From an uncultured Gammaproteobacteria bacterium (GTDB lineage: Bacteria > Pseudomonadota > Gammaproteobacteria > Steroidobacterales > Foliamicaceae): a stretch of 64,000 nucleotides of DNA. The translations under genes and the position numbers were made by a program. Below, in pieces: positions 1 to 12,432 of the stretch (its first letter is position 1; each line of letters begins with the position of its first letter). The notes under the pieces were generated by a model that worked only from the letters and a program-made list of their open reading frames with translations, did no database searches and had not been told where the DNA came from. The stretch is taken from the NCBI GenBank assembly GCA_951828235.1, contig OX639965.1, positions 515,191 through 579,190 on the forward strand, read 5' to 3'.

Positions 1-483
1 ATCGCAGACCGACATGGCCTGAAAGGTGTCGCCGTAGTAGCCTCGCCGTATGGTCAGCAGCCGGGTCCGGCCCTTGATGCCGCGGGCGCGCCAGTACTGG
101 AGGGCCATCTTGATCGCTACTTCCACCGCCACCGAGCCGGAATCGGAGAAAAACACCCGGTCGAGGTCGCCGGGAGTCATATCGACCAGCCGTTGCGCAA
201 GACGAATCCCCGGGGCATGCGTAAGCCCCCCGAACATCACGTGCGGCATAAGCGATATCTGCTCGCGCGCGGCGCGGTTCAGCACCGGATGGTTGTAGCC
301 GTGGATTACCGACCACCACGACGACATCCCGTCGATCAACTCCCGCCCGTCCGCAAGCGTCAGGCGCACGCCGCGGGCGGAGGCCACCGGATAGACCGGC
401 GTCGGTTTCCGCATGGATTCGTATGGATGCCAGATGTGCTGCCGGTCGAATTCCAGGTCAAGGTCAGACGGGCCGCTGCTCAA
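1..483 (-). CDS. bioA: Adenosylmethionine-8-amino-7-oxononanoate aminotransferase, 5' part (runs off the window)
   Basis: Manual minus-strand translation (absent from the ORF track): [10 protein letters not shown]...[15 protein letters not shown]...[22 protein letters not shown]...GYYGDT. TTG start overlaps the bioD stop (TTGA). Confidence 0.93.
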
Positions 484-1091
484 AGCGCGATCCTCGCGGC
501 CTGAATCCTGACCTGTTTGCGCGAAACCGGCCGCGGCAGCGCCGGCAGATCCAGCAGGCACGAAAGACCGGTCACTTCAAGAATAACGCTGCGGCTGTCC
601 GGATTGGGTTCGCCGCTGAAAACGATCCCGGCCAGCGGCAGTCCCCGTGCCCGAAGCGCTTCGACGGTCAGTAGGGTGTGATTGATGCTGCCCAGGTAAT
701 AGCTCGCAACGACAACCACCGGCAGGCCCCAGTCTTCCATGAGATCGGTGTTCAGCACATCCTTCGCCACCGGCACATGCACACCGCCCGCCGACTCCAC
801 AACCAATGGCCGGTCGATGCCGGGAAGCTGAAGCCGCGCCCGCTTCAGCGTCCTGCCTTCTCTTGCGGCGGCCGCATGAGGTGACATGGCCGCCTGCAGC
901 CGATAGGCCTCGGGCAGGATCCGGACGCGCTCATTCGTGACCAGCCGCCGCGCCTCCATGGCGTCGGTATGCGCCAGCCCGCCCGCCTGCACCGGCTTCC
1001 AGTACGCCGCCCCCAGCCGCTCCGCAAAAAGCGCGGCGACCAGCGTCTTGCCGACGCCCGTCCCAATCCCCGCAATCGCGTATCCCCGCAT
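480..1091 (-). CDS. bioD: Dethiobiotin synthase
   Basis: P-loop [35 protein letters not shown]; bio operon context. Confidence 0.95.
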
Positions 1092-1177
1092 CTATCCGGA
1101 AGAACAGTGGCGGACCATTAGTGCCGCAATGCACCAGGCCCGCCGGGACCGGGAACGGCCGCCCCGGCGAATGCGCT

Positions 1178-1726
1178 TTAGCGGCCCGGTGAAGAAACGG
1201 GCGCGCCGCGCTTCGCTACGCTCAGGCTCTCAAGCATCGCAACGATGTCCTCCGCGGCGGTGTCGGCGTTCACTTCCCGGTCAACGGCAAGTATCATCCC
1301 GTCCGTTCCGATGTAGAACGTCTCGCGTCTGGTGAAGCCGAAGCTGCTCATCACTTGATAGGCTTCGGCGACCTCTTTGGTCTCGTCGGACAGGATCGGG
1401 AAATCCGCGCCGTACTTGTTTGAGAACGCCGTGTTGTCCTCGACTGAGTCCACGCTGGCCATGAAGTAGCTGACCTTGAATTCGCGGATCCTGTCGCCGT
1501 TCTCCGTCAGGGACTTGCATTCCCTAGTGCATCCCGGCGTATCGGCCTTCGGAAACCAGGCGAGCACGACCGGGCCGTCCTTCAGGAGTTCCGACAGCGA
1601 ATGGTCGTTTCCGTCCGAGCCGGGGAGCGTCCAGTCCGGCGCCGGAGAGCCGACGTCGAGTGAGCCGACGGCGGCACAGGCAGCGCCCGCAAAGGCAAGC
1701 GCGCAAACAGCCAGGATCTTTTTCAT
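1178..1726 (-). CDS. Peroxiredoxin (BCP/PrxQ-like) with N-terminal signal peptide
   Basis: WFPKADTPGCTREC (PxxxTxxC); hydrophobic leader MKKILAVCALAFAGAACA; ATGA overlap with the bioF stop. Confidence 0.88.
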   Translation of the reverse strand: MKKILAVCALAFAGAACAAVGSLDVGSPAPDWTLPGSDGNDHSLSELLKDGPVVLAWFPKADTPGCTRECKSLTENGDRIREFKVSYFMASVDSVEDNTAFSNKYGADFPILSDETKEVAEAYQVMSSFGFTRRETFYIGTDGMILAVDREVNADTAAEDIVAMLESLSVAKRGAPVSSPGR

Positions 1727-2904
1727 GAGTGGTTACCGTTTGTTGGCAAGGGAGGGACGCCGATTATATCGGGCATCGCTTCGTCCACCGCCGCGAACAG
1801 GAGGTCGATTTCCGCCTTGGTGTTATGCGCGTGCAGACACACGCGAATTCGCTCCTCGCCCGCAGGAATAGTGGGTGCGCGGATCGGCAGGGCGGCAAGT
1901 CCCCGGCTGCGAAGAAGGCCGGCTACCCGAGTTGCACGGCGGGCGCCGGGCACCCGCAAACACTGAATCCAGGACTCGCTCGGCAGCCAGGGCCACGGCG
2001 ATTCCGCCACGCGCTCCCGAAAATAGGACACGTTGCCCCGCAATTGCTCCCGTTCCGCATTCATCTGCGGAAGCAGTTCGTATGCGGCTTGCACGCTTGC
2101 CGCCCAGAGGGGGGAAACGCCGGTGGAGAACACAAACGAACGGGCAAAATTCACCAGGTAGTCGCGCAGGTCCTTCGAACACAGCACGGCGCCGCCCTGC
2201 AAACCCAGCGCCTTGCCGAAAGTCACCACCCGGGCCAGCACCTGTTCCTGGAGTCCGGCGGCCGCCACGCCGCCACGCCCCGCAGGTCCCAGCACCCCGT
2301 TGGCATGCGCCTCGTCCACCACGACGGCCGCGTCATGCCGTTTTGCGAGAACCGCGATTTCGTCCAGCGGCGCGAAGTCGCCATCCATCGAATAGACCGT
2401 TTCCACTACGATCGCGGTGCTTGCTCCGGTTTCCAGCGCCCCGAGCCTGGCTCCGAGATCGCGCATGTCGTTGTGTGCGAAGATGACCCGTTTCACTCCG
2501 CTCAGGCGGCCGCCGTCGATGGCGCTGGCGTGTAGCAGACGATCGCAGACCAGCGTGCTCACCACTCCGCCCAGGCTAGCCAGCAGGCCCAGGTTGGCGG
2601 CGAAGCCGCTGGAAAAAACCAGCACGGCCCCGGACGAGTAGAACTCGGCGAGCCGGGCCTCCAGCTTCGCGATCCCGGCGTGGTTCCCGGAAATCAGCCG
2701 GGACCCGGTGGCGCCCTGCGGCACGTCGCCGTCGGCGGCGAGCGCGGCTATTCTGCGGCGCAGGCGCCGGTCGCGGGCCAGACCCAGGTAGTCGTTGGAA
2801 CAGAAGTCCACGCCGTTGGGCGCCGGCTCCAGGCTACGCCGCAGGCCGGCCATTTCACGCTCCCTGAGCGCCTCCCGTATGGCGCGCAGTGCCGCAGCGC
2901 TCAT
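1723..2904 (-). CDS. bioF: 8-amino-7-oxononanoate synthase
   Basis: FCSNDYLGLA, TGSRLISGNH, SSGFAAN, YSMDGD, DEAH, TFGKALG; start moved to ATG 2904, which overlaps the bioB stop. Confidence 0.95.
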   Translation of the reverse strand: MSAAALRAIREALREREMAGLRRSLEPAPNGVDFCSNDYLGLARDRRLRRRIAALAADGDVPQGATGSRLISGNHAGIAKLEARLAEFYSSGAVLVFSSGFAANLGLLASLGGVVSTLVCDRLLHASAIDGGRLSGVKRVIFAHNDMRDLGARLGALETGASTAIVVETVYSMDGDFAPLDEIAVLAKRHDAAVVVDEAHANGVLGPAGRGGVAAAGLQEQVLARVVTFGKALGLQGGAVLCSKDLRDYLVNFARSFVFSTGVSPLWAASVQAAYELLPQMNAEREQLRGNVSYFRERVAESPWPWLPSESWIQCLRVPGARRATRVAGLLRSRGLAALPIRAPTIPAGEERIRVCLHAHNTKAEIDLLFAAVDEAMPDIIGVPPLPTNGNHS

Positions 2905-3872
2905 TGAGGTATGTGCGTGTCCTGCTGCCGGTACGGCTCTCTCGCGGTAAGGCCCAGAAGCTCGAGCAATCCCTCGTCGCTGTCGAACGAGGGGTTTGGC
3001 GTGGTAAGCAGTTTTTCGCCGGTGAATATCGAATTGGCGCCGGCCAGGAAACACAGGGCCTGCTGCTCGGGGCTCATACGCGAGCGCCCGGCGGACAAAC
3101 GCACCATGGCATTCGGCATGAGCACGCGCGCGGTGGCGATCATCCGGACCATTTCCCAGGTCGAGACCGGCGGGCAGTCCTCCAGGGGCGTTCCGGGCGC
3201 CGGGACCAGCGCGTTGACCGGAACCGACTCCGGAGGACTGGGCAGCGTTGCAAGGGTGTGCAGCAGGTCGATGCGCTGATTTACTGTTTCGCCCATCCCG
3301 ATAATGCCCCCGCAGCACACGGAAATGCCGGCCTTGTGTACGTTGGCAACCGTCTCCAGGCGGTCGTCATAGACGCGCGTGCCGATGATCTCGGGATAGA
3401 ACTCGCGGCTGGAATCGAGGTTGTGGTTATACGCATACAGGCCCGCTTCCTTGAGGCGCTGCGCCTGCGACTCGGTGAGCATGCCGAGGGTGCAGCAGAC
3501 TTCAAGCCCCAGGTCGCGGACGCCGGAAACCATCTCCAGCACCTCGTCGAAGTGGCGATTGTCGCGCACTTCGCGCCAGGCGGCGCCCATGCAGAACCGG
3601 GTGCTTCCCGCCGCCTTGGCTTCCCGCGCGGCTTCGAGCACCGCGTCAAGTTTCAGCAGGCCGTGCCGGTCGATGCCGGTGTGGTAACGGGCCGCCTGCG
3701 GGCAATAGGCGCAATCCTCGGGGCAGCCGCCGGTCTTGACCGACAGCAGCGTGCAGAGCTGTACTTCGCCCGGAGCGTGATGCTCACGGTGCACCGTGGC
3801 TGCCCTGTACACCAGGTCCAGCAGCGGCGAATGGTAGATCGCCGCGACGTCCGCCCTTGCCAAGTCCGACAT
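2901..3872 (-). CDS. bioB: Biotin synthase (radical SAM)
   Basis: KTGGCPEDCAYCPQ (CxxxCxxC), RFCMGAAW, YNHNLD, CCGGIIGMGE, SVPVN, VRLSAGR; GGAGG RBS. Confidence 0.97.
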   Translation of the reverse strand: MSDLARADVAAIYHSPLLDLVYRAATVHREHHAPGEVQLCTLLSVKTGGCPEDCAYCPQAARYHTGIDRHGLLKLDAVLEAAREAKAAGSTRFCMGAAWREVRDNRHFDEVLEMVSGVRDLGLEVCCTLGMLTESQAQRLKEAGLYAYNHNLDSSREFYPEIIGTRVYDDRLETVANVHKAGISVCCGGIIGMGETVNQRIDLLHTLATLPSPPESVPVNALVPAPGTPLEDCPPVSTWEMVRMIATARVLMPNAMVRLSAGRSRMSPEQQALCFLAGANSIFTGEKLLTTPNPSFDSDEGLLELLGLTAREPYRQQDTHIPQ

Positions 3873-3881
3873 GTTCGCCTC

Positions 3882-5450
3882 CTAGTGCCGTATCACAGGT
3901 GTATCCCGCCGCCCGAGGACGGATGGCGCCAGCAGTTCATCGTACCGGCCTCGTCCAATCATCGCGCCGGGACTGCGGTCTGCAAGCGATACTACAACGA
4001 TTACCAGGGCCGCGGCCGGAATCGAGAACAGCCCCGGATAAATCCACGGGAAGGGCGCGTTCTCAAGCCCCAGGGCACCTTCCCAGACGGCCGGACTCAG
4101 CGCCAGCAACACCACCGAAACGACCATGCCCACCCAGCCGCCGATGATCAGCCCGCGTGCGCTGGCGCCGCGCCAGAACAGCGCAGCAACCAGCGCCGGC
4201 GTGTTCACGCTGGCGGCCACGGTAAAGGCGAGCGCGGTCAGATAGGCGACGTTCTGTCCCCGAAACTGAATCCCCAGCGCCACGGCCACCACGCCCAGTC
4301 CCACGACGCTGATGCGCGACGCCCGGACTTCCGTCCTGTCGTCGGCACGGCCACGCTTGAGCACGCCAGTATAGAGATCGTGCGCCAGGGCCGCAGCGGC
4401 GGCCAGCACCAATCCGCAAACCACCGCCAGCAGCGTGGCGAAGGCCACCGAAGCCATGAATCCCAGAAGCAGGTTGCCGCCGATGATCCGCGCCGCATGC
4501 ATGATCGCCATATTGGTACTGCCGATCATTCCGCCCTGCTCGTTCAGGATCTCCGTATTCCCGGCCAGCAGTACGATGATTCCGAGCCCGGTAATCCAGA
4601 GCAGCAGCGAAAAAGTCACGATGTAGCCGGTGGCGTACACCGCGGAGCGGCGGGCCTGTCTGGCGTCGGGCACCGTAAAGAAGCGCATCAACAGATGCGG
4701 CAGCCCCACCATGCCGACCAGCCCGGTCAGGACAAACGCGAAGATCGAGATCCTGTCGGGCAGGAACTGACCCGGGCTCAGCCACTCCTCGCCCCGCTGA
4801 TGCACGCGCGCCGCCGACTCCAGCAACGATAACGGACCCTCGCCCAGGTTCAGCATGAGCAGGGCAAGCAGCACCAGGATCGACATCATGAGCAATACGG
4901 CCTTGGTCATCTGCACCCAGGTGGTCGCCAGCATTCCGCCGACGCTTACATAGAGCACGGTCAGGCCACCCACCATGGCGACGGCATAGGGATAGCGGAT
5001 TCCGAACAGCACCTCGAACAGCGCGCCGCCCGCCACCATCTGCGATATCAGGTACAGGACCGCGGCCACCAGCGTCCCGGTGGCCGCCAGCACGCGGATC
5101 GAGGTTTCGCGAAAGCGTGCCGACAACACGTCCACAAAGGTATAGCTGCCCAGGTTCCGCAGCCGTTCCGCGAGCAGGCACATCAGCAGCGGGTAGCCGA
5201 CTGCCCCGCCCGTCATGTATATGAGGCCATCGTATCCGTCCGTGTAGATGACGGCGGTCACGCCCAGCAGCGTTCCGGCGGAAAGATGGTCCCCCGCGAT
5301 CGCCAGCCCGTTGCTGAAGCCGCCGATCGAGTGCGAAGCCGCATAGAACTCCGAAGATGAACGCGTCCGCCGACCCGCCTGCCAGGTGATCAACAGCGAG
5401 GCCCCGAGGATCAGGACAAACGTGAGGATGGAAGCCAGGTTAGGCGCCAT
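3882..5450 (-). CDS. Sodium:solute symporter, ActP-like
   Basis: NGLAIAGD, GGMLATTWVQ, GLPHLLMRFFTVPDARQARRS, AFATLLAVVCGL; many TM segments; preceded by DUF485. Confidence 0.88.
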   Translation of the reverse strand: MAPNLASILTFVLILGASLLITWQAGRRTRSSSEFYAASHSIGGFSNGLAIAGDHLSAGTLLGVTAVIYTDGYDGLIYMTGGAVGYPLLMCLLAERLRNLGSYTFVDVLSARFRETSIRVLAATGTLVAAVLYLISQMVAGGALFEVLFGIRYPYAVAMVGGLTVLYVSVGGMLATTWVQMTKAVLLMMSILVLLALLMLNLGEGPLSLLESAARVHQRGEEWLSPGQFLPDRISIFAFVLTGLVGMVGLPHLLMRFFTVPDARQARRSAVYATGYIVTFSLLLWITGLGIIVLLAGNTEILNEQGGMIGSTNMAIMHAARIIGGNLLLGFMASVAFATLLAVVCGLVLAAAAALAHDLYTGVLKRGRADDRTEVRASRISVVGLGVVAVALGIQFRGQNVAYLTALAFTVAASVNTPALVAALFWRGASARGLIIGGWVGMVVSVVLLALSPAVWEGALGLENAPFPWIYPGLFSIPAAALVIVVVSLADRSPGAMIGRGRYDELLAPSVLGRRDTPVIRH

Positions 5451-5763
5451 CGGGACTGTTCCAGTCGTGGCGCTGCCTGATTTGTGCGCGCAAGGGCGTC
5501 AGCCGGCGGGTACTGAGCGCAGCATAGGTGGCCGTGGCGGCGAACCAGCCGATCAGGCCCAGCACGTTCCAGACCAGCCCGACAGTAACCCAGCGGCCAG
5601 GCACAAGGCGAATGTCGAGCACTGCCGGCCAGTAGGCCATCACCACGCCCAGGCTTACGTAAAACGCCACCACGCTGCCGGCAATGGCAAAGGCATAGCG
5701 CCGCTGAAGACGGCGCAGCCGGATGAAGTCCGGGTCCTGAACGAGTTCCGCTACGGTATTCAC
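5440..5763 (-). CDS. DUF485 (YjcH-like) small membrane protein
   Basis: 107 aa with two TM segments and PDFIRLRRLQRR N-terminus; overlaps the symporter start, the usual DUF485-actP arrangement. Confidence 0.8.
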   Translation of the reverse strand: MNTVAELVQDPDFIRLRRLQRRYAFAIAGSVVAFYVSLGVVMAYWPAVLDIRLVPGRWVTVGLVWNVLGLIGWFAATATYAALSTRRLTPLRAQIRQRHDWNSPDGA

Positions 5764-5768
5764 CGTTC

Positions 5769-5820
5769 CTGGGAGAGAGGGCGTCTCGCCCTCTGGAGGT
5801 CGGGACGACCTCCCTCCCGG
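5769..5820. repeat. REP-like palindromic element, copy 1 (intergenic)
   Basis: ctgggagagagggcgtctcgccctctggaggtcgggacgacctccctcccgg; homologous to the copies at 27310, 28883 and 52245. Confidence 0.8.
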
Positions 5821-5821
5821 A

Positions 5822-6274
5822 CTACGCTTCGAGGATGCAATACAGCACGATCAGGTGGCCGTCGTGATCGAGCATGCCGATCTCGCGGCCCACGCGACCG
5901 TCGTGCGTACGCAGCGTTTCCTCCGGAAAGACATGCAGGCCTTCGGCGCGCGCGCCCTCCACGACGGCGTCGATATCGTCCACTTCCAGCACCAGCGCGT
6001 GGCTGCTCGGCAGGTTGGGCTCGGGCAGTTCCACGCCCTTGATCTCGGTCAGCGCCAGGCTGCGAACCTGATCTTTGGAACTGAGCGCGGCGAACCCGGT
6101 CGTGGCTTCCCGAGGGATCTGGAACACCGTAAACGAATACGATTCAGGGCGGTGCCCCAGGGTGAAATCCAGCTTAAAGCCAAGAATGTCGCGGTAGACG
6201 CGATAAGCGCGTTCCAGGTCGGCGACAACGAGATTGGTGCGTTGCACGCGCACCGGAAGATCACTGGTCATCAA
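5822..6274 (-). CDS. VOC/glyoxalase family protein
   Basis: RTNLVVADLERAYRVYRDILG, LVLEVDDID, MLDHDGHLIVL. Confidence 0.8.
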   Translation of the reverse strand: MMTSDLPVRVQRTNLVVADLERAYRVYRDILGFKLDFTLGHRPESYSFTVFQIPREATTGFAALSSKDQVRSLALTEIKGVELPEPNLPSSHALVLEVDDIDAVVEGARAEGLHVFPEETLRTHDGRVGREIGMLDHDGHLIVLYCILEA

Positions 6275-7771
6275 TCATTTCCCCATCTTGAGCATCGGAA
6301 AATCGGTGAGCGGGATGCTCACCGTCTTGGGTTCGGTGAAGAACTCCAGGCTGCCCCTGGCGCCGTCCCGGCCGATGCCGGACTGCTTGTAGCCGCCGAA
6401 GGGCGCCCGCAACTCGCGGTAGATCGGCGTGTTCACCCAAATCGTGCCGGCGCGAAGCTCGCGCGCCGCCCGCATGGTTACGTTGAGGTCCTGCGACCAT
6501 AGGTAGGCCACCAGGCCGAACTCCGAGTCGTTGGCGATGCGGAGCGCCTCGTCCAGGTCTTCGTACACCAGGAAAGTCGCAAACGGGCCGAAGATCTCTT
6601 CCTGGCAGATGCGTGCTGAGTTGTCGTCGGCGAGAACGGCCGTCGGTTCCACGAACCAGCCCTGCTCCATGCCCTCGGGCCGACCCCCGCCGGTCAGCAA
6701 CTTCGCGCCTTCCTCGCGCGCCAGGTCCGCGTACGACAACACGCGGTTCATGTGGTTCTCGTAGCACAGCGGTCCGATTTCGGTCTCCGCCTTGAGCGGG
6801 TCGCCGATGCGAAGCTTGCGGGACCGTTCCACGAAACGCTCGATGAACTCGCCGGCAATCGACTTCTGCACCAGGATGCGCGAACCCGCCAGGCATTGCT
6901 GGCCGTTGCCGGAGAAGATGCCGATCAGCGAGCCGTCCAGCGCGCGGTCGAGATCGGCGCTCTCGTGCACGATGTTGGCGGACTTGCCGCCCAGTTCCAG
7001 CAGCACCGGCTTGAGCGACTTGCCGGCCTCCGACATGATGATCTTTCCGGTCTCCGATCCCCCGGTGAATCCCACCATGTCCACCTCGGGATGCGTGACC
7101 AGGGCCGTGCCGGTAACCGGCCCCCGGCCGTTGACGAGGTTAACGACGCCCGGCGGCAGGCCGGCCTCGTGAAAAATCTCGACCATCCGCTGCATCGAGT
7201 GCGGAGTGTATTCGGACGGCTTCAGCACGCAGGTGTTGCCGAAGGCGATGCAGGTGGCCACTCGCATCGAAGCCAGCGGTATCGGGGCGTTCCACGGCGC
7301 CATCATGGCGCCCACGCCGACCGGCTCGCGGGTCACGTAGGTCAGGTAGTTGGGATTCTGCGTATAGACCTCTCCGGATTCCTGGCTCAGGACCTCGCCG
7401 AAGAACTCGAAGTTGTAGGCGGCGCGCGCCACGTGCATGGCGCGGACCTGGCTGATGGGCACTCCGGTGTTGAGGCTGTCCAAAAACTCCAGTTCCTCGC
7501 GGTGCCTGTGCAGCGCCTCGTGCATCGAGCGGAATATCGCCTTGCGCTCGTCGGCGCCCATGCGCGGCCAGGGGCCCGTCTCGAAGGCCTTGCGCGCCGA
7601 GCGCACGGCGGCATCGACTTCCTGGGCATCGGCCTCGCGCAGAACGCCGTTGGGTTCCTCGCTGGCCGGGTTGACGATCGGAAAGTCCACCCCGCGCCGC
7701 GACACACCCACGGATTCGCCGTCGATGATGCTGGTTACGCGCTCGCGCACGTCAAATGCCACGTCAGTCAT
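6275..7771 (-). CDS. Aldehyde dehydrogenase (resembles hydroxymuconic-semialdehyde dehydrogenase type)
   Basis: PWNAP, LKPSE, FTGGSETG, LELGGKS, GQQCLAGSR, EEIFGP, PFGGYKQSG. Confidence 0.92.
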   Translation of the reverse strand: MTDVAFDVRERVTSIIDGESVGVSRRGVDFPIVNPASEEPNGVLREADAQEVDAAVRSARKAFETGPWPRMGADERKAIFRSMHEALHRHREELEFLDSLNTGVPISQVRAMHVARAAYNFEFFGEVLSQESGEVYTQNPNYLTYVTREPVGVGAMMAPWNAPIPLASMRVATCIAFGNTCVLKPSEYTPHSMQRMVEIFHEAGLPPGVVNLVNGRGPVTGTALVTHPEVDMVGFTGGSETGKIIMSEAGKSLKPVLLELGGKSANIVHESADLDRALDGSLIGIFSGNGQQCLAGSRILVQKSIAGEFIERFVERSRKLRIGDPLKAETEIGPLCYENHMNRVLSYADLAREEGAKLLTGGGRPEGMEQGWFVEPTAVLADDNSARICQEEIFGPFATFLVYEDLDEALRIANDSEFGLVAYLWSQDLNVTMRAARELRAGTIWVNTPIYRELRAPFGGYKQSGIGRDGARGSLEFFTEPKTVSIPLTDFPMLKMGK

Positions 7772-7779
7772 GGCGGGCG

Positions 7780-7785
7780 AGCATA
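7780..7785 (-). promoter_or_regulatory. Putative -10 box TATGCT (leaderless start of the aldehyde dehydrogenase operon)
   Basis: TATGCT-N8-ATG with no SD. Confidence 0.45.
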
Positions 7786-7917
7786 AAGAATCCAGGCCGC
7801 CTAATCAATTCACGCGATTGCACGGAGCTTGACAATACAGCCCCGTCAGCAGTAAGAATGCGCTTCAGAAGGATCGGTCACAGGGACTGTCCGGGTAGAT
7901 ATTCAAGGAGGATCAAA

Positions 7918-8466
7918 ATGACCGGGGAATCGTTTGATACGCATGAGGCGATACAGACACTTGAAAGGGCCGGCTGCCCCGCCGAACAAGCGGAGGCCAT
8001 GGTTGCCGTCGTGACTCAGGCCACCGCACCCACTGCACAGGTAATCAAGGATCTGGAACGCATCCGGCTCGTGGTGGAGACCAAAATGGCCACCAGGGAA
8101 GACGTAGCGGAACTGCGAACGGAGATGCACGAGGGCCTGGCGGGCCTGCGAACGGAAATGCACGAGGGCCTGGCGGGCCTGCGAACGGAAATGCACGGGG
8201 GCCTGGCGGGCCTGCGCGCCGAAAATAAGGGAGATGCGGCTGAGCTTCGGGCTGACTGGAGGATTGATCTGGCAGAGCTTCGAACGGAAACGCAGACCGG
8301 ATTTGCGGATCTCAGTGCGCGCCTGAACAGGGTCACTGAGAGCATGATTACGCGGGGCGAGCTGTATCGCGCCCTGTGGATACAGGGTGGCGTGCTGGCC
8401 ACGCTCATTCTTTCGCTTGCGGCCATTACGCTGGGATTCGCGCTATTCGTTTTGACGGGGTCCTGA
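7918..8466 (+). CDS. DUF1640/CCDC90-like coiled-coil protein with C-terminal membrane anchor
   Basis: FDTHEAIQTLERAGCPAEQAEA head, MATREDV neck, hendecad coiled coil, hydrophobic C-terminus; AGGAGG RBS before ATG 7918. Confidence 0.8.
   Translation: MTGESFDTHEAIQTLERAGCPAEQAEAMVAVVTQATAPTAQVIKDLERIRLVVETKMATREDVAELRTEMHEGLAGLRTEMHEGLAGLRTEMHGGLAGLRAENKGDAAELRADWRIDLAELRTETQTGFADLSARLNRVTESMITRGELYRALWIQGGVLATLILSLAAITLGFALFVLTGS
8113..8217 (+). repeat. 33-bp in-frame tandem repeat, 3 copies plus a partial
   Basis: ctgcgaacgga(g/a)atgcacg(a/g)gggcctggcgggc x3, encoding LRTEMH(E/G)GLAG. Confidence 0.95.
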
Positions 8467-8526: not shown

Positions 8527-9309
8527 TCATGCCATTGCCGTACGGGCCGCCGCCTCCCACAGAAGGCGTAGATCTTCATAGCCATCCACCAGGTGGCCGA
8601 GGGCGCGCCAATCCAAAAGATGCGCGCGGCCCCGGGCTGAGGCGAGCAGAGTTCGGGCCTCGCGTTCGTTGAGACTGTTGTGGCCCACTACCACCGCCAG
8701 GTCGAACAGCGGGTCGCCGGGCGCGGCAAATTCCCAGTCGATCAGCCGCAACGCCGGTCCGCACAAGACGTTTTGAGCCACCGGGTCGTTGTGGCACAGC
8801 GCCGGCCTGCGGCGCTCTCCCGCAGCCGCCTTGATGGATCGCAAGGCGGCGCGCGCCGTTCTCCGCGCCCACGCGCCGCCCAAGATGGAAGCGTAAAGTG
8901 CCAGGGCGCGCCTCAGGTCGAGCGGCTCCGTCACCGAGGGCGGCGCCGCGGTCCGGTGCAGCCGGCGCAGCAATTCCCCCAACGCGCGTAACCTGCGTGG
9001 GTGACGCAGCATGGCCGGAGTGCATGTGCGTCCCTCCAGCAGGCTCGTTACCAGCACGCCCCGGGTGGCATCGGAGTAAACCAGTTTCGGACCGAGCCCG
9101 CGGCCCGCGATCGAGCGCAACACGGCGGTCTCGGCGCCGCGGTCCAGGCCTAGCGCGCGAACCGCGGGCGTGTCCAGCCGAACGACAAGCCGCTCCTCAC
9201 CCCGCGCGGCCAGCCAGGTCTCGTTCCATCCTCCGCCGCCGGACAGCCGGCTCATGAATCGGATGTCCCCGAGATCGGGATGTTCGGGGAGCCGAGGCGC
9301 CGGGTTCAC
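8527..9309 (-). CDS. Choline/aminoglycoside-kinase-fold phosphotransferase, probable thiamine kinase
   Basis: CHNDPVAQNV and LIDWEFA motifs; GTG start overlaps the PnuC stop; last gene of a TPP-riboswitch operon. Confidence 0.8.
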   Translation of the reverse strand: MNPAPRLPEHPDLGDIRFMSRLSGGGGWNETWLAARGEERLVVRLDTPAVRALGLDRGAETAVLRSIAGRGLGPKLVYSDATRGVLVTSLLEGRTCTPAMLRHPRRLRALGELLRRLHRTAAPPSVTEPLDLRRALALYASILGGAWARRTARAALRSIKAAAGERRRPALCHNDPVAQNVLCGPALRLIDWEFAAPGDPLFDLAVVVGHNSLNEREARTLLASARGRAHLLDWRALGHLVDGYEDLRLLWEAAARTAMA

Positions 9310-9866
9310 GCCGGCAGGGCCTTGCGCCAGGACCGGTAGCCCAGCCACGCCAGGACCAGGTAGCTTGCATACAGCACGGCGGTGAAATAAAGGCCGCGTT
9401 CCAGGTACAGCGCCACGTAGATCGAGTCCAGCACGATCCACCAGATCCAGTTGCCGATGTACTTGCGCGCCTGCATGAATGTGGCCAGCGGCGCCGCCAG
9501 CGCGGTGACCACGTCGACAAAGAACAGGGACGATTCGCTGTATTGCGCGCCGAAGATCGTGATCGGGATCGAGACCGCGAGCAGCGCGGCCACCGCGATC
9601 ACGTTGTTGCGCCAGCCCCAGAATCCCAGCTTCGCCGGCTTCTTCGCTCCCTTGCGCCACTTGCGGTAGCCGTAGACAGCCATGATCATGTAGAAGACCT
9701 GCAGCCAGGGCTGGAATATCAGGCCGGCGTCGAGAAACACCACCACGAACAGTCCGGAAGCGAGGTACGACGCCGGCCAGCAGGCGATATGGCGGCGTAT
9801 GGCCAGCACCACGTAGACGAAACCGAGCGCGACGCCCACGATCTCCAGGACCGTCATGATTTCCAT
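9306..9866 (-). CDS. pnuT: PnuC-family transporter, probable thiamine specificity (PnuT)
   Basis: QVFYMIMAVYGYRKW, QARKYIGNWIWWIVLD; TPP regulon context. Confidence 0.85.
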   Translation of the reverse strand: MEIMTVLEIVGVALGFVYVVLAIRRHIACWPASYLASGLFVVVFLDAGLIFQPWLQVFYMIMAVYGYRKWRKGAKKPAKLGFWGWRNNVIAVAALLAVSIPITIFGAQYSESSLFFVDVVTALAAPLATFMQARKYIGNWIWWIVLDSIYVALYLERGLYFTAVLYASYLVLAWLGYRSWRKALPA

Positions 9867-9907
9867 TCGCCGCTCTCAGGGCAGGTTCGAGCTGAACGGC
9901 CCGCCGC

Positions 9908-10177
9908 CTAAATCTCGGGGGGCGATTGGATGGGCAGGTCCGCGTTCAGGTACTTTGCAACCAGCACTACCCGGTCGCCGGACTCCATGACCGCCTTCAT
10001 GCACGCATCCACGGCCCGCTGGACGTCCGCCATTTCGCCCCGCAGTTGCGTGCTCATCTGGTTGATCAGCACTTCAATGCCCGGTTGTTCGCGCAGATCG
10101 CGGATGAATCCGGTGATTCGCGCAATGGGCTCCTCGCTGGCCAGCGGATACAGGCTGAGTTCGGCGGTGATGCGCAT
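9908..10177 (-). CDS. YkoF/thiamine-binding-like small protein
   Basis: MRITAELSLYPL..., NQMSTQLRGE; lies between the TonB receptor and PnuC. Confidence 0.75.
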   Translation of the reverse strand: MRITAELSLYPLASEEPIARITGFIRDLREQPGIEVLINQMSTQLRGEMADVQRAVDACMKAVMESGDRVVLVAKYLNADLPIQSPPEI

Positions 10178-10181
10178 AGAT

Positions 10182-12341
10182 CTAGAAATACCGGCGAATG
10201 GTAACGCCGAAGTGCCGCGGGTCCCCCTGCTGGCGGAACTCCTGTTGGGGCCAGTCCGGGGGCACATTCGAGAAATAGAACCCGCGGACCGCGTAATACT
10301 CGTCAAGAAGATTGCGCACCCAGGCGTATGCTTCCCAGCCATTCCAGGCTCGGCCGGCCCGCACGTTCAACAGCGAATAGGCATCCGACTTTCGGTCGTG
10401 GCTGCTGGAGAAGTAGAAGCCGTCCTTTCCGGTCAGCTCGCCGGCCGCGAACCAGCCCCGCGGGCGCCCCCAGCGGACCCCGAGCGCGTAGCCGTAGCCC
10501 GGCGCGTGCGGCTGCTCGCGGCCTTCCAGTTCCGGGCGGCCCGGGAAGCGCGTGATTTCCGTGTCCAGCAATCCAATGGCGGCGCTCATGCGCCAGGCCT
10601 CGTTAGGCGCGTAGTCCAGGGTCAATTCGATGCCGCGGTTATAGCCGCGGCCGACATTCCGGGTGAAGAAGACGAAGGTATTGGGGTCCTGCGGGTCAAG
10701 CTGCCGCGAGGTGTCCACCTGCACGTCGGCGCGCTGCGAATGGAAGACGGCCAGCTCGCCGCGCAGCCGGCCGTCCAGCCACAGCCCCTTTGCGCCCACT
10801 TCGTAGTTCCAGAGAAACTCCGGCTGATAGACCAGTTCCGCGGAAGTCAGCCCCTGGCCCGCCAGACCCAGGTTGAACCCGCCGGCCTTGTAGCCGCGCG
10901 CTGCGCGAGCGTAAACGCTTGTTTCATCGCCGAGCCGACGCGAAACGCTGACATGCCCGCCCGTCATGCCGTCCGTCGGCGAGAACCGCTCGCCGTTGGA
11001 ATCATCGTAGTCGGCGTCGCGCTGTTCCCGGCGCAGGCCAACGGTTACCCGCCATTCATCGGCGAACGCGCGCGAAAGTTCGCCGAACAGCGCCAGGCTG
11101 TCGGCGCCGTAGCTGGAACGGAAGCGGTCCTCGCTGGGGCCGGGCGCGTAACCCGGCTCGGCGTACAGGCCCCGGTCGACGCGATCATTGTCCTCGTCGA
11201 GATTCAGGAACCACACCCCCAACACGTAGTCCAGCCCGGCGTCCGCGGGCGACAGCAGGCGCAATTCCTGGCTCAAGCCGCTGCGCTCGCGCAGGGTGCG
11301 CGAGCTGTAGTCGTACTGCATGGCAAAGCCGGCGATTTCCGACCAGTAGGCGTCTTCTCCCCAGTCGGCGTCATAGCTGTGTTCGATATCGGAGCTCGCC
11401 CCGCCGGTGATGCTCACCAGCCGGTGGCCACCGCCCAGTTCCAGCTCGGCGCGCAGCGAAGCTCCGGTGGACGCCTGCGAATCGCGCCCGGGACGGTCCG
11501 AGAAGGTGGTCAGCCGGTTGTCGATCGACCAGCCGTCATAGCCGTTGTCGAGGTCGACATGCAGCAGCGTCAATCGCAAGGCCAGACCCGGCGCCGGATC
11601 GAAATTGAGCCTGGTCCTGAGGCTCAACTCCTCCCGGCCGTTGGTGTCGTCGCGATCCAGCGTGGCATTGCGCCGAAAGCCGTTGGCCCGGTACCGGTGC
11701 ACGGCCAGGCGCCCGGCGGCCTTTTCGCCCAGAGGCCCGCTGACGGCCAGTCCGAAAGCCCGCATATCGTCGTTGCCGAAGGAAAGCTCGGCTTCGGCTT
11801 CCGCGTCCCGGCCCGGCTCGCGGGAGCGCGCATAGATCAGTCCGGCCAGCGCGTTGGCGCCGTAGCGCGTGCCCTGCGGCCCGCGCAGGACCTCCACGCT
11901 GCCCAGGTCGAAACGCGTGGCGACGCCGCCGATGGCGGAGAAGTCGATGTCGTCCAGCAGGAAACCCACCGAGGGGTTCGGCGCGCCTTCGTACTGCGAG
12001 CGTTCGCCGATTCCGCGCACCTGAAAATAACGCGCCCGGGACGATCCGCCGGACCAGTGCAGGTTGGGCGTGAGCTGCACCAGTTCCTCGAAGTGTTGGA
12101 CCGACGAGCTCCGGATTGTCTCAGCGTTATGCACCGTAACGCTGGTCGGCAGGTCCAGGCTGCGCACCTCCTTCAACGAGGCCGTGACCACCAGTTCCTC
12201 CAGCACGCCGCCGGGCGCTTCCTCCGGCGAGGCTTGTTGCGGCTGCGCCGCGGAAACGGCAGCGGTAGCGCTGGCGAGCAGCACGCAAAGCGAGTCTGCG
12301 GCGAATCGGCCAATGAAGTTGCGGTTGCGGAAAAGCTTCAT
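10182..12341 (-). CDS. TonB-dependent receptor, probable thiamine receptor
   Basis: Signal peptide, LEELVVTAS TonB box, VEVLRGPQGTRYGANALAG plug, terminal Phe; ATG 12341 directly follows the riboswitch. Confidence 0.93.
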   Translation of the reverse strand: MKLFRNRNFIGRFAADSLCVLLASATAAVSAAQPQQASPEEAPGGVLEELVVTASLKEVRSLDLPTSVTVHNAETIRSSSVQHFEELVQLTPNLHWSGGSSRARYFQVRGIGERSQYEGAPNPSVGFLLDDIDFSAIGGVATRFDLGSVEVLRGPQGTRYGANALAGLIYARSREPGRDAEAEAELSFGNDDMRAFGLAVSGPLGEKAAGRLAVHRYRANGFRRNATLDRDDTNGREELSLRTRLNFDPAPGLALRLTLLHVDLDNGYDGWSIDNRLTTFSDRPGRDSQASTGASLRAELELGGGHRLVSITGGASSDIEHSYDADWGEDAYWSEIAGFAMQYDYSSRTLRERSGLSQELRLLSPADAGLDYVLGVWFLNLDEDNDRVDRGLYAEPGYAPGPSEDRFRSSYGADSLALFGELSRAFADEWRVTVGLRREQRDADYDDSNGERFSPTDGMTGGHVSVSRRLGDETSVYARAARGYKAGGFNLGLAGQGLTSAELVYQPEFLWNYEVGAKGLWLDGRLRGELAVFHSQRADVQVDTSRQLDPQDPNTFVFFTRNVGRGYNRGIELTLDYAPNEAWRMSAAIGLLDTEITRFPGRPELEGREQPHAPGYGYALGVRWGRPRGWFAAGELTGKDGFYFSSSHDRKSDAYSLLNVRAGRAWNGWEAYAWVRNLLDEYYAVRGFYFSNVPPDWPQQEFRQQGDPRHFGVTIRRYF

Positions 12342-12432
12342 ACCTCGTTCCTCCGCCGGTACTAACCGGATCAGGTTCAAGGGGTCCCCGTTGACAGGGT
12401 CTCAGGCCGAAGGGCCGCCCCCCAGGTGAGTG
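12342..12432 (-). promoter_or_regulatory. TPP riboswitch
   Basis: Minus strand reads GGGGGGCGGCCCTTCGGCCTGAGACCC...CCCTTGAACCTGATCCGGTTAGTACCGGCGGAGGAA, with the CTGAGA and GAACCTGAT TPP signatures. Confidence 0.93.

Follow-up and report, generated by a model that had tools for sequence, protein, structure and literature searches.

Downstream of genes for an aldehyde dehydrogenase (ALDH), a VOC/glyoxalase-fold protein and an ActP-type transporter, the genome of Candidatus Foliamicus carries the genes for the late steps of biotin synthesis, which raises the question of whether the upstream module supplies the pimelate moiety of the vitamin. The locus occupies positions 1-7771 of the 64,000-nt stretch analysed here (the window; G000:C1:515191-579190), which belongs to a genome of a single 3.1-Mb contig with 94.7% completeness (G000). 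Comparison was made with 21 congeners (22 genomes in all), which we take to be sponge-associated; a literature search on Foliamicus and Foliamicales returned no papers, and no conclusion draws on the unpublished genome G078. A first-pass annotation had proposed that the module imports or makes a pimelate precursor. Gene identities, synteny, losses, promoter conservation, selection and sequence affinities, which form the observed basis of this analysis, lead to a different answer: the module is probably not the pimelate supply, the pimeloyl source being independent of it, and there is good reason to believe that late-biotin genes imported as a cassette are driven by the promoter of a resident catabolic/carboxylate-uptake module that is not needed for biotin synthesis.

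Within the genus, parts of the module have been deleted next to intact biotin genes. In each of the 21 congeners the bio block lies downstream of ALDH/VOC or of what is left of them, and the suggested check on the synteny of ALDH-VOC-DUF485-actP with bioB in relatives thus found the adjacency conserved at the level of the genus. The DUF485-actP pair is its least conserved part (17/21 congeners), being absent from the contiguous locus as well as from the remaining genome in G010, G015, G017 and G019, two of which are single contigs of 95-96% completeness. Since a scar of ~50 nt from the 3' end of actP persists in three of these four genomes, the pair was deleted, and because the BioC and BioB trees both split G017 from the other three, at least two losses must have taken place. 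ALDH was lost once in the genus, namely in G015, where no ALDH paralogue was found at E<=1e-150, while VOC was lost once or twice, as it is truncated to 30 residues in G002 and carries a frameshift in G011 (possibly an assembly error).

In the genomes devoid of actP, bioB, bioF, bioD and bioA are free of internal stops and keep their motifs, and the catalytic motifs of BioF are intact and conserved in all congeners; in G020, bioD has been relocated ~20 kb away. For pairs involving actP-less genomes, ratios of nonsynonymous to synonymous substitution rates (dN/dS) are 0.09-0.17 for bioB, 0.23-0.27 for bioF, 0.14-0.20 for bioD and 0.12-0.15 for bioA, compared with 0.04-0.13, 0.15-0.20, 0.06-0.19 and 0.10-0.16, respectively, among actP carriers; all values are far below 1, and the pairs are few and related, such that the differences do not represent a statistical test. 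Hence, all four genes of the late pathway (BioF, BioA, BioD and BioB) are intact and, judged by these ratios, under purifying selection, and their products are presumably active. The module, on the other hand, is neither retained wherever bioF is retained nor does it co-occur with bio genes across lineages, as would be expected of a device for pimelate scavenging. Because relatives lost module parts and kept the biotin genes, the latter probably just share the promoter of the module. Moreover, unrelated neighbours, a thiamine-uptake block upstream and an enoyl-CoA hydratase (ECH) gene downstream (each in 20/21 congeners), are conserved as well as or better than actP, and outside the genus relatives of ALDH/VOC and of the cassette occur apart, both of which speak against a functional tie between module and bio genes.

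How the bio genes are transcribed follows from the layout of the locus. All nine genes lie on the minus strand and each was identified by hidden Markov model (HMM), bearing out the gene order of the first-pass annotation: ALDH (6275..7771), VOC (5822..6271; PF00903), DUF485, the YjcH-like small subunit of an ActP-type transporter (5440..5763; PF04341), a divergent ActP-like SSS cation/carboxylate symporter (3882..5450; NF006903 below cut-off), bioB (2901..3872; TIGR00433 above cut-off), bioF (1723..2904; TIGR00858, 353 bits), a BCP/PrxQ-type peroxiredoxin (Prx) with a signal-peptide-like N-terminus (1178..1726), bioD (480..1091; TIGR00347 above cut-off) and the 5' part of bioA (1..483), which starts with TTG at 483 and ends past the window edge at G000:C1:514372. 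Examination of the genes beyond bioA, as had been advised, found ECH next and neither bioC nor bioH. The overlaps, short gaps and 86-bp Prx-bioD gap described earlier were likewise recovered, since the junctions measure +3 bp (ALDH-VOC), +58 bp (VOC-DUF485), -11 bp (DUF485-actP), +9 bp (actP-bioB), -4 bp (bioB-bioF), -4 bp (bioF-Prx), +86 bp (Prx-bioD) and -4 bp (bioD-bioA). As had also been noticed, the 58-bp gap is filled by a palindromic repeat (5764..5821, without assigned strand) resembling repetitive extragenic palindromic elements, which folds stably (z = -4.4) and recurs at 48 loci in the G000 genome. In G006, G012 and G014 the VOC-DUF485 gap amounts to only 0-3 bp and the repeat is absent, which marks it as a late insertion.

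A putative sigma-70-type promoter (7780..7808, minus strand; TTGATT, 17-nt spacer, TATGCT) lies 8-12 nt 5' of the ALDH start (8 nt in G000) and recurs in slightly varying form at the same position in 20/20 ALDH-bearing congeners. With a score of 8/12 it was missed by the default scan and emerged only from the congener comparison, which revealed no conserved promoter site before any other gene of the unit. In G015, the deletion removed an internal, in-frame segment of ALDH and spared the promoter, the start codon and the final 45 codons, so that the site is kept in 21/21 congeners; its retention despite the deletion suggests that it was kept for the downstream genes. The nine genes thus probably form one transcription unit driven by the ALDH promoter, as the first-pass annotation had assumed. 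Alternatively, bioB might be served by a promoter within the 3' end of actP, rendering the adjacency merely positional, which would accord with the ~50 nt of actP kept in three deletion lineages and with the tolerance of an insert of ~270 bp before bioB in G012. Such a division into two units is improbable, as no conserved consensus promoter occurs <=200 nt from bioB in any lineage, no terminator-like site was found in the 9-bp actP-bioB gap and the ALDH promoter persists in G015. The insert in G012 (L042), situated in the actP-bioB gap, has terminal inverted repeats and resembles miniature inverted-repeat transposable elements; in G000 and genomes close to it, the C-terminus of ActP is formed by similar short footprints.

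Repression by BirA is not expected at this promoter, because BirA begins at its ligase domain and is devoid of the N-terminal helix-turn-helix/DNA-binding domain. Another copy of the repeat in the 58-bp gap resides in frame within birA itself (G000:C1:1227444-1227494; L125) where it divides the HMM match to the ligase into two parts. Repeat insertions within coding regions are known from Rickettsia, and the birA copy resembles them.

The nature of the module is indicated by its relatives. ALDH falls into the HpaE/AMSDH group of hydroxy/amino-muconate semialdehyde dehydrogenases, its best family being TIGR02299 (518 bits, cut-off 638) and its best PDB match 2d4e. Its arginines align with R464 of AMSDH, on which a literature search found no paper, and with the corresponding N-terminal arginine of HpcC; in this family they presumably bind a carboxylate. 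It therefore resembles the HpaE/AMSDH/XylG semialdehyde dehydrogenases in its best HMM and PDB matches and in the conserved arginines, but differs in passing no family cut-off and in belonging to an uncharacterised clade found with genes for FAD monooxygenase, maleate-isomerase-like and DUF1838 proteins. The nearest relatives outside the genus (65-69% identical) have FAD monooxygenase, maleate-isomerase-like, UbiD, hydrolase and glutathione S-transferase genes nearby, with bio or actP genes beside them in 0/5 loci. The nearest relatives of the VOC protein (50-54%) adjoin a zinc-binding oxidoreductase in catabolic clusters, which, like the surroundings of the ALDH relatives, are of ring-cleavage type. 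In G031, a member of the same order without a bioB or bioD match, the closest VOC relative lies 4 kb from an ALDH relative in one such cluster. A recurrent uncharacterised catabolic cluster (G000:C1:238000-257000; L087-L090, L133) holds FAD monooxygenase, maleate-isomerase-like, ALDH, DUF1838, VOC, UbiD and Rieske oxygenase genes together with one for a 375-aa methyltransferase.

The symporter is an SSS permease with a DUF485 partner, the hallmark of ActP/YjcH transporters, and is 46-48% identical to other ActPs. As in the YjcH-ActP and MctBC pairs, the DUF485 gene overlaps that of the permease; unlike these, the Foliamicus ActP sits on a long branch and below family cut-offs (NF006903, 580 bits against 750). 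For the DUF485 family there is cofitness evidence (bioRxiv 10.1101/072470), and the substrates of the characterised transporters ActP, MctC and MctP are short monocarboxylates (PMC7918813; bioRxiv 10.1101/072470). Around 35 other ActP loci, examined mostly in 1.5-kb flanks, no bio gene was encountered (0/35). By these affinities, the module would seem to serve carbon catabolism.

A link between module and cassette could nonetheless exist in the form of facultative scavenging. ActP would import a host-derived dicarboxylate or omega-oxo-acid, ALDH would oxidise the semialdehyde, a generic acyl-CoA ligase and beta-oxidation, including the ECH encoded after bioA, would yield pimeloyl-CoA for BioF, and redundant enzymes would cover those lineages that miss module parts. 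The probable co-transcription, the lack of an intact known early pathway and the position of ECH in 20/21 congeners are in keeping with this route, as are the several acyl-CoA ligases, the divergence of ActP, a second adjacency of bio and actP genes (L251, see below) and an ALDH that keeps its arginines within a family acting on carboxylated semialdehydes. It is nevertheless quite unlikely, given that transporter, ALDH and VOC were lost independently with the bio genes preserved, G015 even lacking both ALDH and transporter, that the characterised ActP-type carriers transport short monocarboxylates, as mentioned (PMC7918813), that no known pimeloyl-CoA ligase (BioW, PimA/PimC) was found in G000 and that, in G012 and G013, ECH is equipped with a promoter-like site of its own. 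A narrower variant, for which only a slim chance is seen, derives pimeloyl-CoA from fragments of sponge fatty-acid oxidation via ActP import, ALDH oxidation and beta-oxidation to C7, redundancy again covering the losses; if true, it would constitute an undescribed host-fed biotin route that replaced BioC-BioH.

This leads to the origin of the pimeloyl thioester. The first-pass annotation had noted that bioC, bioH and bioW are missing near the operon, which extends to the whole genome for bioH and bioW, but not for bioC: a full-length orthologue lies near comF (G000:1255073-1255918), is present in 22/22 genomes and is syntenic with the canonical BioCs of the order. This gene is a remnant of the comF-bioB(FH)C(D) locus of the order and has diverged at essential residues, carrying F20/H27/H113 in 21/22 genomes and F/Y/Q in G004, whereas Y/Q/Q is found in E. 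coli and in almost every BioH-linked BioC. The assignment of these positions relies on motif spacing relative to PMC11661456, AbBioC not forming part of the alignment. In tested BioCs, the variants Y19A, Y19F and Q26A/Q116A are inactive (PMC11661456). The orthologue scores 130 bits against a cut-off of 185, shows dN/dS values of 0.10-0.36 and found no match in a PDB search. It was considered as a refutation of the premise that an early pathway is missing, and was dropped in this role owing to the substituted Y/Q/Q residues. Similar residue changes occur in order members that have bioC and are devoid of BioH. In the BioC-like proteins of such BioH-less lineages (G000:C1:1255073-1255918, L113, L115, L116, L119) the Tyr/Gln/Gln set is lost and purifying selection persists; they are also retained in order genomes without a bioB match and possibly have a second function linked to comF.

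The genome-wide search that had been recommended for bioC, bioH, bioW, bioI and bioZ did not reveal any known pimelate pathway in intact form. BioH was detected in none of the 22 genomes (BioK, BioJ, BioV and BtsA were not searched for), and G000 has neither BioG nor BioY. BioW (PF03744) has no match in G000, and the best score for PimA/PimC is 205 against a cut-off of 706 (TIGR03205), a search that leaves room for generic ligases among the several acyl-CoA ligases of the genome. With regard to BioZ or another dedicated ketosynthase, G000 contains no FabH or FabF beyond a single FabH next to plsX and a single FabF next to acpP. The search for BioI returned three P450s, none linked to bio genes, which are patchy in the genus and have no match in G009 or G020, while a scan for the BioE motif (E-ExxH-E-ExxH, spacing from PMC12704756; no profile) gave a COQ7-like protein as the only plausible hit. 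The gap in the early pathway is hence probably real. One P450 stands by sterol-reductase-like and other lipid genes (G000:C1:941133-951091), possibly a sterol/triterpenoid cluster from a look at the sequence only.

A conventional route, in which the comF-linked BioC methylates malonyl-acyl carrier protein and an unrecognised alpha/beta-hydrolase replaces BioH, is conceivable, albeit doubtful. It concerns the pimeloyl source alone and is compatible with an imported cassette on a resident promoter. Universal presence, synteny and the dN/dS range of the bioC orthologue accord with it, the replacement of BioH is common (PMC4751477, PMC3494674) and the genome has >30 alpha/beta-hydrolase matches. 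Compared with the BioC-BioH route of E. coli, of which the order members G024 and G025 have the canonical comF-bioBFHCD locus, Foliamicus likewise keeps bioC near comF, but lacks BioH and carries substitutions at the essential Tyr and Gln positions, where the mutations tested abolish activity (PMC11661456); the low HMM score and the homologues in order members without a bioB match, which hint at another role, also count against it. The BioW route of Bacillus subtilis provides a precedent for the conversion of free or exogenous pimelate to pimeloyl-CoA (PMC7645780, PMC12704756); in Foliamicus, by contrast, BioW was not detected and nothing indicates that the transporter carries pimelate.

The cassette itself looks imported, to judge by its sequence affinities. 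BioB is 72-73% identical to proteins from outside the genus, including some on Bacteroidota-like contigs, one of which has a faint Por-secretion-tail match suggestive of Bacteroidota, compared with 53-59% to BioB of its own order. BioF stays below the TIGR00858 cut-off, with fitting motifs and context, and a search of 399 other gammaproteobacterial genomes at E<=1e-70 did not recover its type; the long N-termini of its relatives were considered as a fused domain, which was rejected, as they seem to reflect starts called too far upstream. Of whole cassettes, the closest is L131, which comprises bioB-F-D-A behind a Na/alanine symporter and is 73% (BioB), 52% (BioF), 50% (BioD) and 68% (BioA) identical. 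Prx, a probable bystander insertion, does not form part of the related cassettes L124, L131 and L132. In order, overlaps, sequence type and the absence of any early-pathway gene from the cluster, the Foliamicus cassette matches the late-only bioBFDA/bioFDA cassettes of alphaproteobacterial and Bacteroidota type (for example, L131, L124, Sphingomonas plasmid NZ_CP155751); it is distinguished by its gammaproteobacterial host, the inserted Prx and its place behind a catabolic promoter. Plasmid searches did not name a donor (best BioB 57-61%).

Under the favoured account of an imported cassette on a resident promoter, the operon would have grown by accretion. A self-contained bioB-bioF-bioD-bioA cassette would have been acquired horizontally by the Foliamicus ancestor, later joined by Prx, and would have taken the place of the comF-linked bioB(FH)C(D) genes of the ancestor. 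It would have come to lie behind a catabolic module of semialdehyde dehydrogenase, VOC protein and ActP-type carboxylate uptake pair, whose promoter before ALDH the bio genes would use free of BirA repression. The module would serve carbon catabolism and be dispensable for biotin synthesis, and the pimeloyl thioester would come from elsewhere in metabolism.

Several observations weigh against this account. The bioF ratio is slightly higher without actP (see above), as are, in the G010/G015/G019 lineage, those of bioC and Prx. The module has remained upstream throughout most of the genus and is under strong purifying selection (0.05-0.11 for both ActP and ALDH), the substrate of the divergent ActP may have shifted, and no alternative pimelate source was identified in the Foliamicus genomes searched. 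Finally, among 83 loci with related bioF, none has ALDH or VOC, but one, on a sphingomonad-like contig (L251:126-5271), has DUF485-actP downstream of bioF-bioD-bioA. This case was taken as an independent juxtaposition on account of the reverse order, the 158-bp gap, the unrelated ActP branch and its singularity (1/83); the bioFDA-DUF485-actP arrangement was not repeated on sphingomonad plasmids.

As it most likely stands, the locus offers a clear example of a vitamin cassette that was imported and adopted a resident promoter, in which natural deletions reveal which part matters, and illustrates that tight co-orientation and genus-level synteny do not demonstrate a shared pathway. A lasting lead is that selection maintains bioF in an entire sponge-associated genus that has no recognisable working pimeloyl route, its annotated BioC having lost residues known to be essential. 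In view of this residue loss and the missing early route, claims of vitamin provision based on such symbiont annotation may rest on a mis-annotated gene.

A few further observations concern the biotin genes and their surroundings. A lone bioB on another metagenome contig (L121:9001-9960), 84% identical and nested in the Foliamicus BioB clade, follows addAB-like genes and is a possible onward transfer, while in the Bacteroidota-like bioF-D-A-(FabF-like)-bioB clusters L210 and L219 a divergent ketosynthase is embedded. Prx has a conserved signal-peptide-like N-terminus, and its identities to congeners (64-87%) are out of step with the BioB and BioC trees, which suggests recombination. The thiamine-uptake block (8527-12432, minus strand) comprises a thiamine pyrophosphate riboswitch (12330-12432) as well as genes for a TonB receptor, a YkoF-like protein, a PnuC-like transporter and a kinase, and is inverted in G018. 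Between this block and the operon, a gene for a CCDC90-like coiled-coil protein with 21-nt tandem repeats (7918-8466, plus strand) occupies this site in no genomes other than G000, G021 and G004 and has four further copies in the genome of G000.

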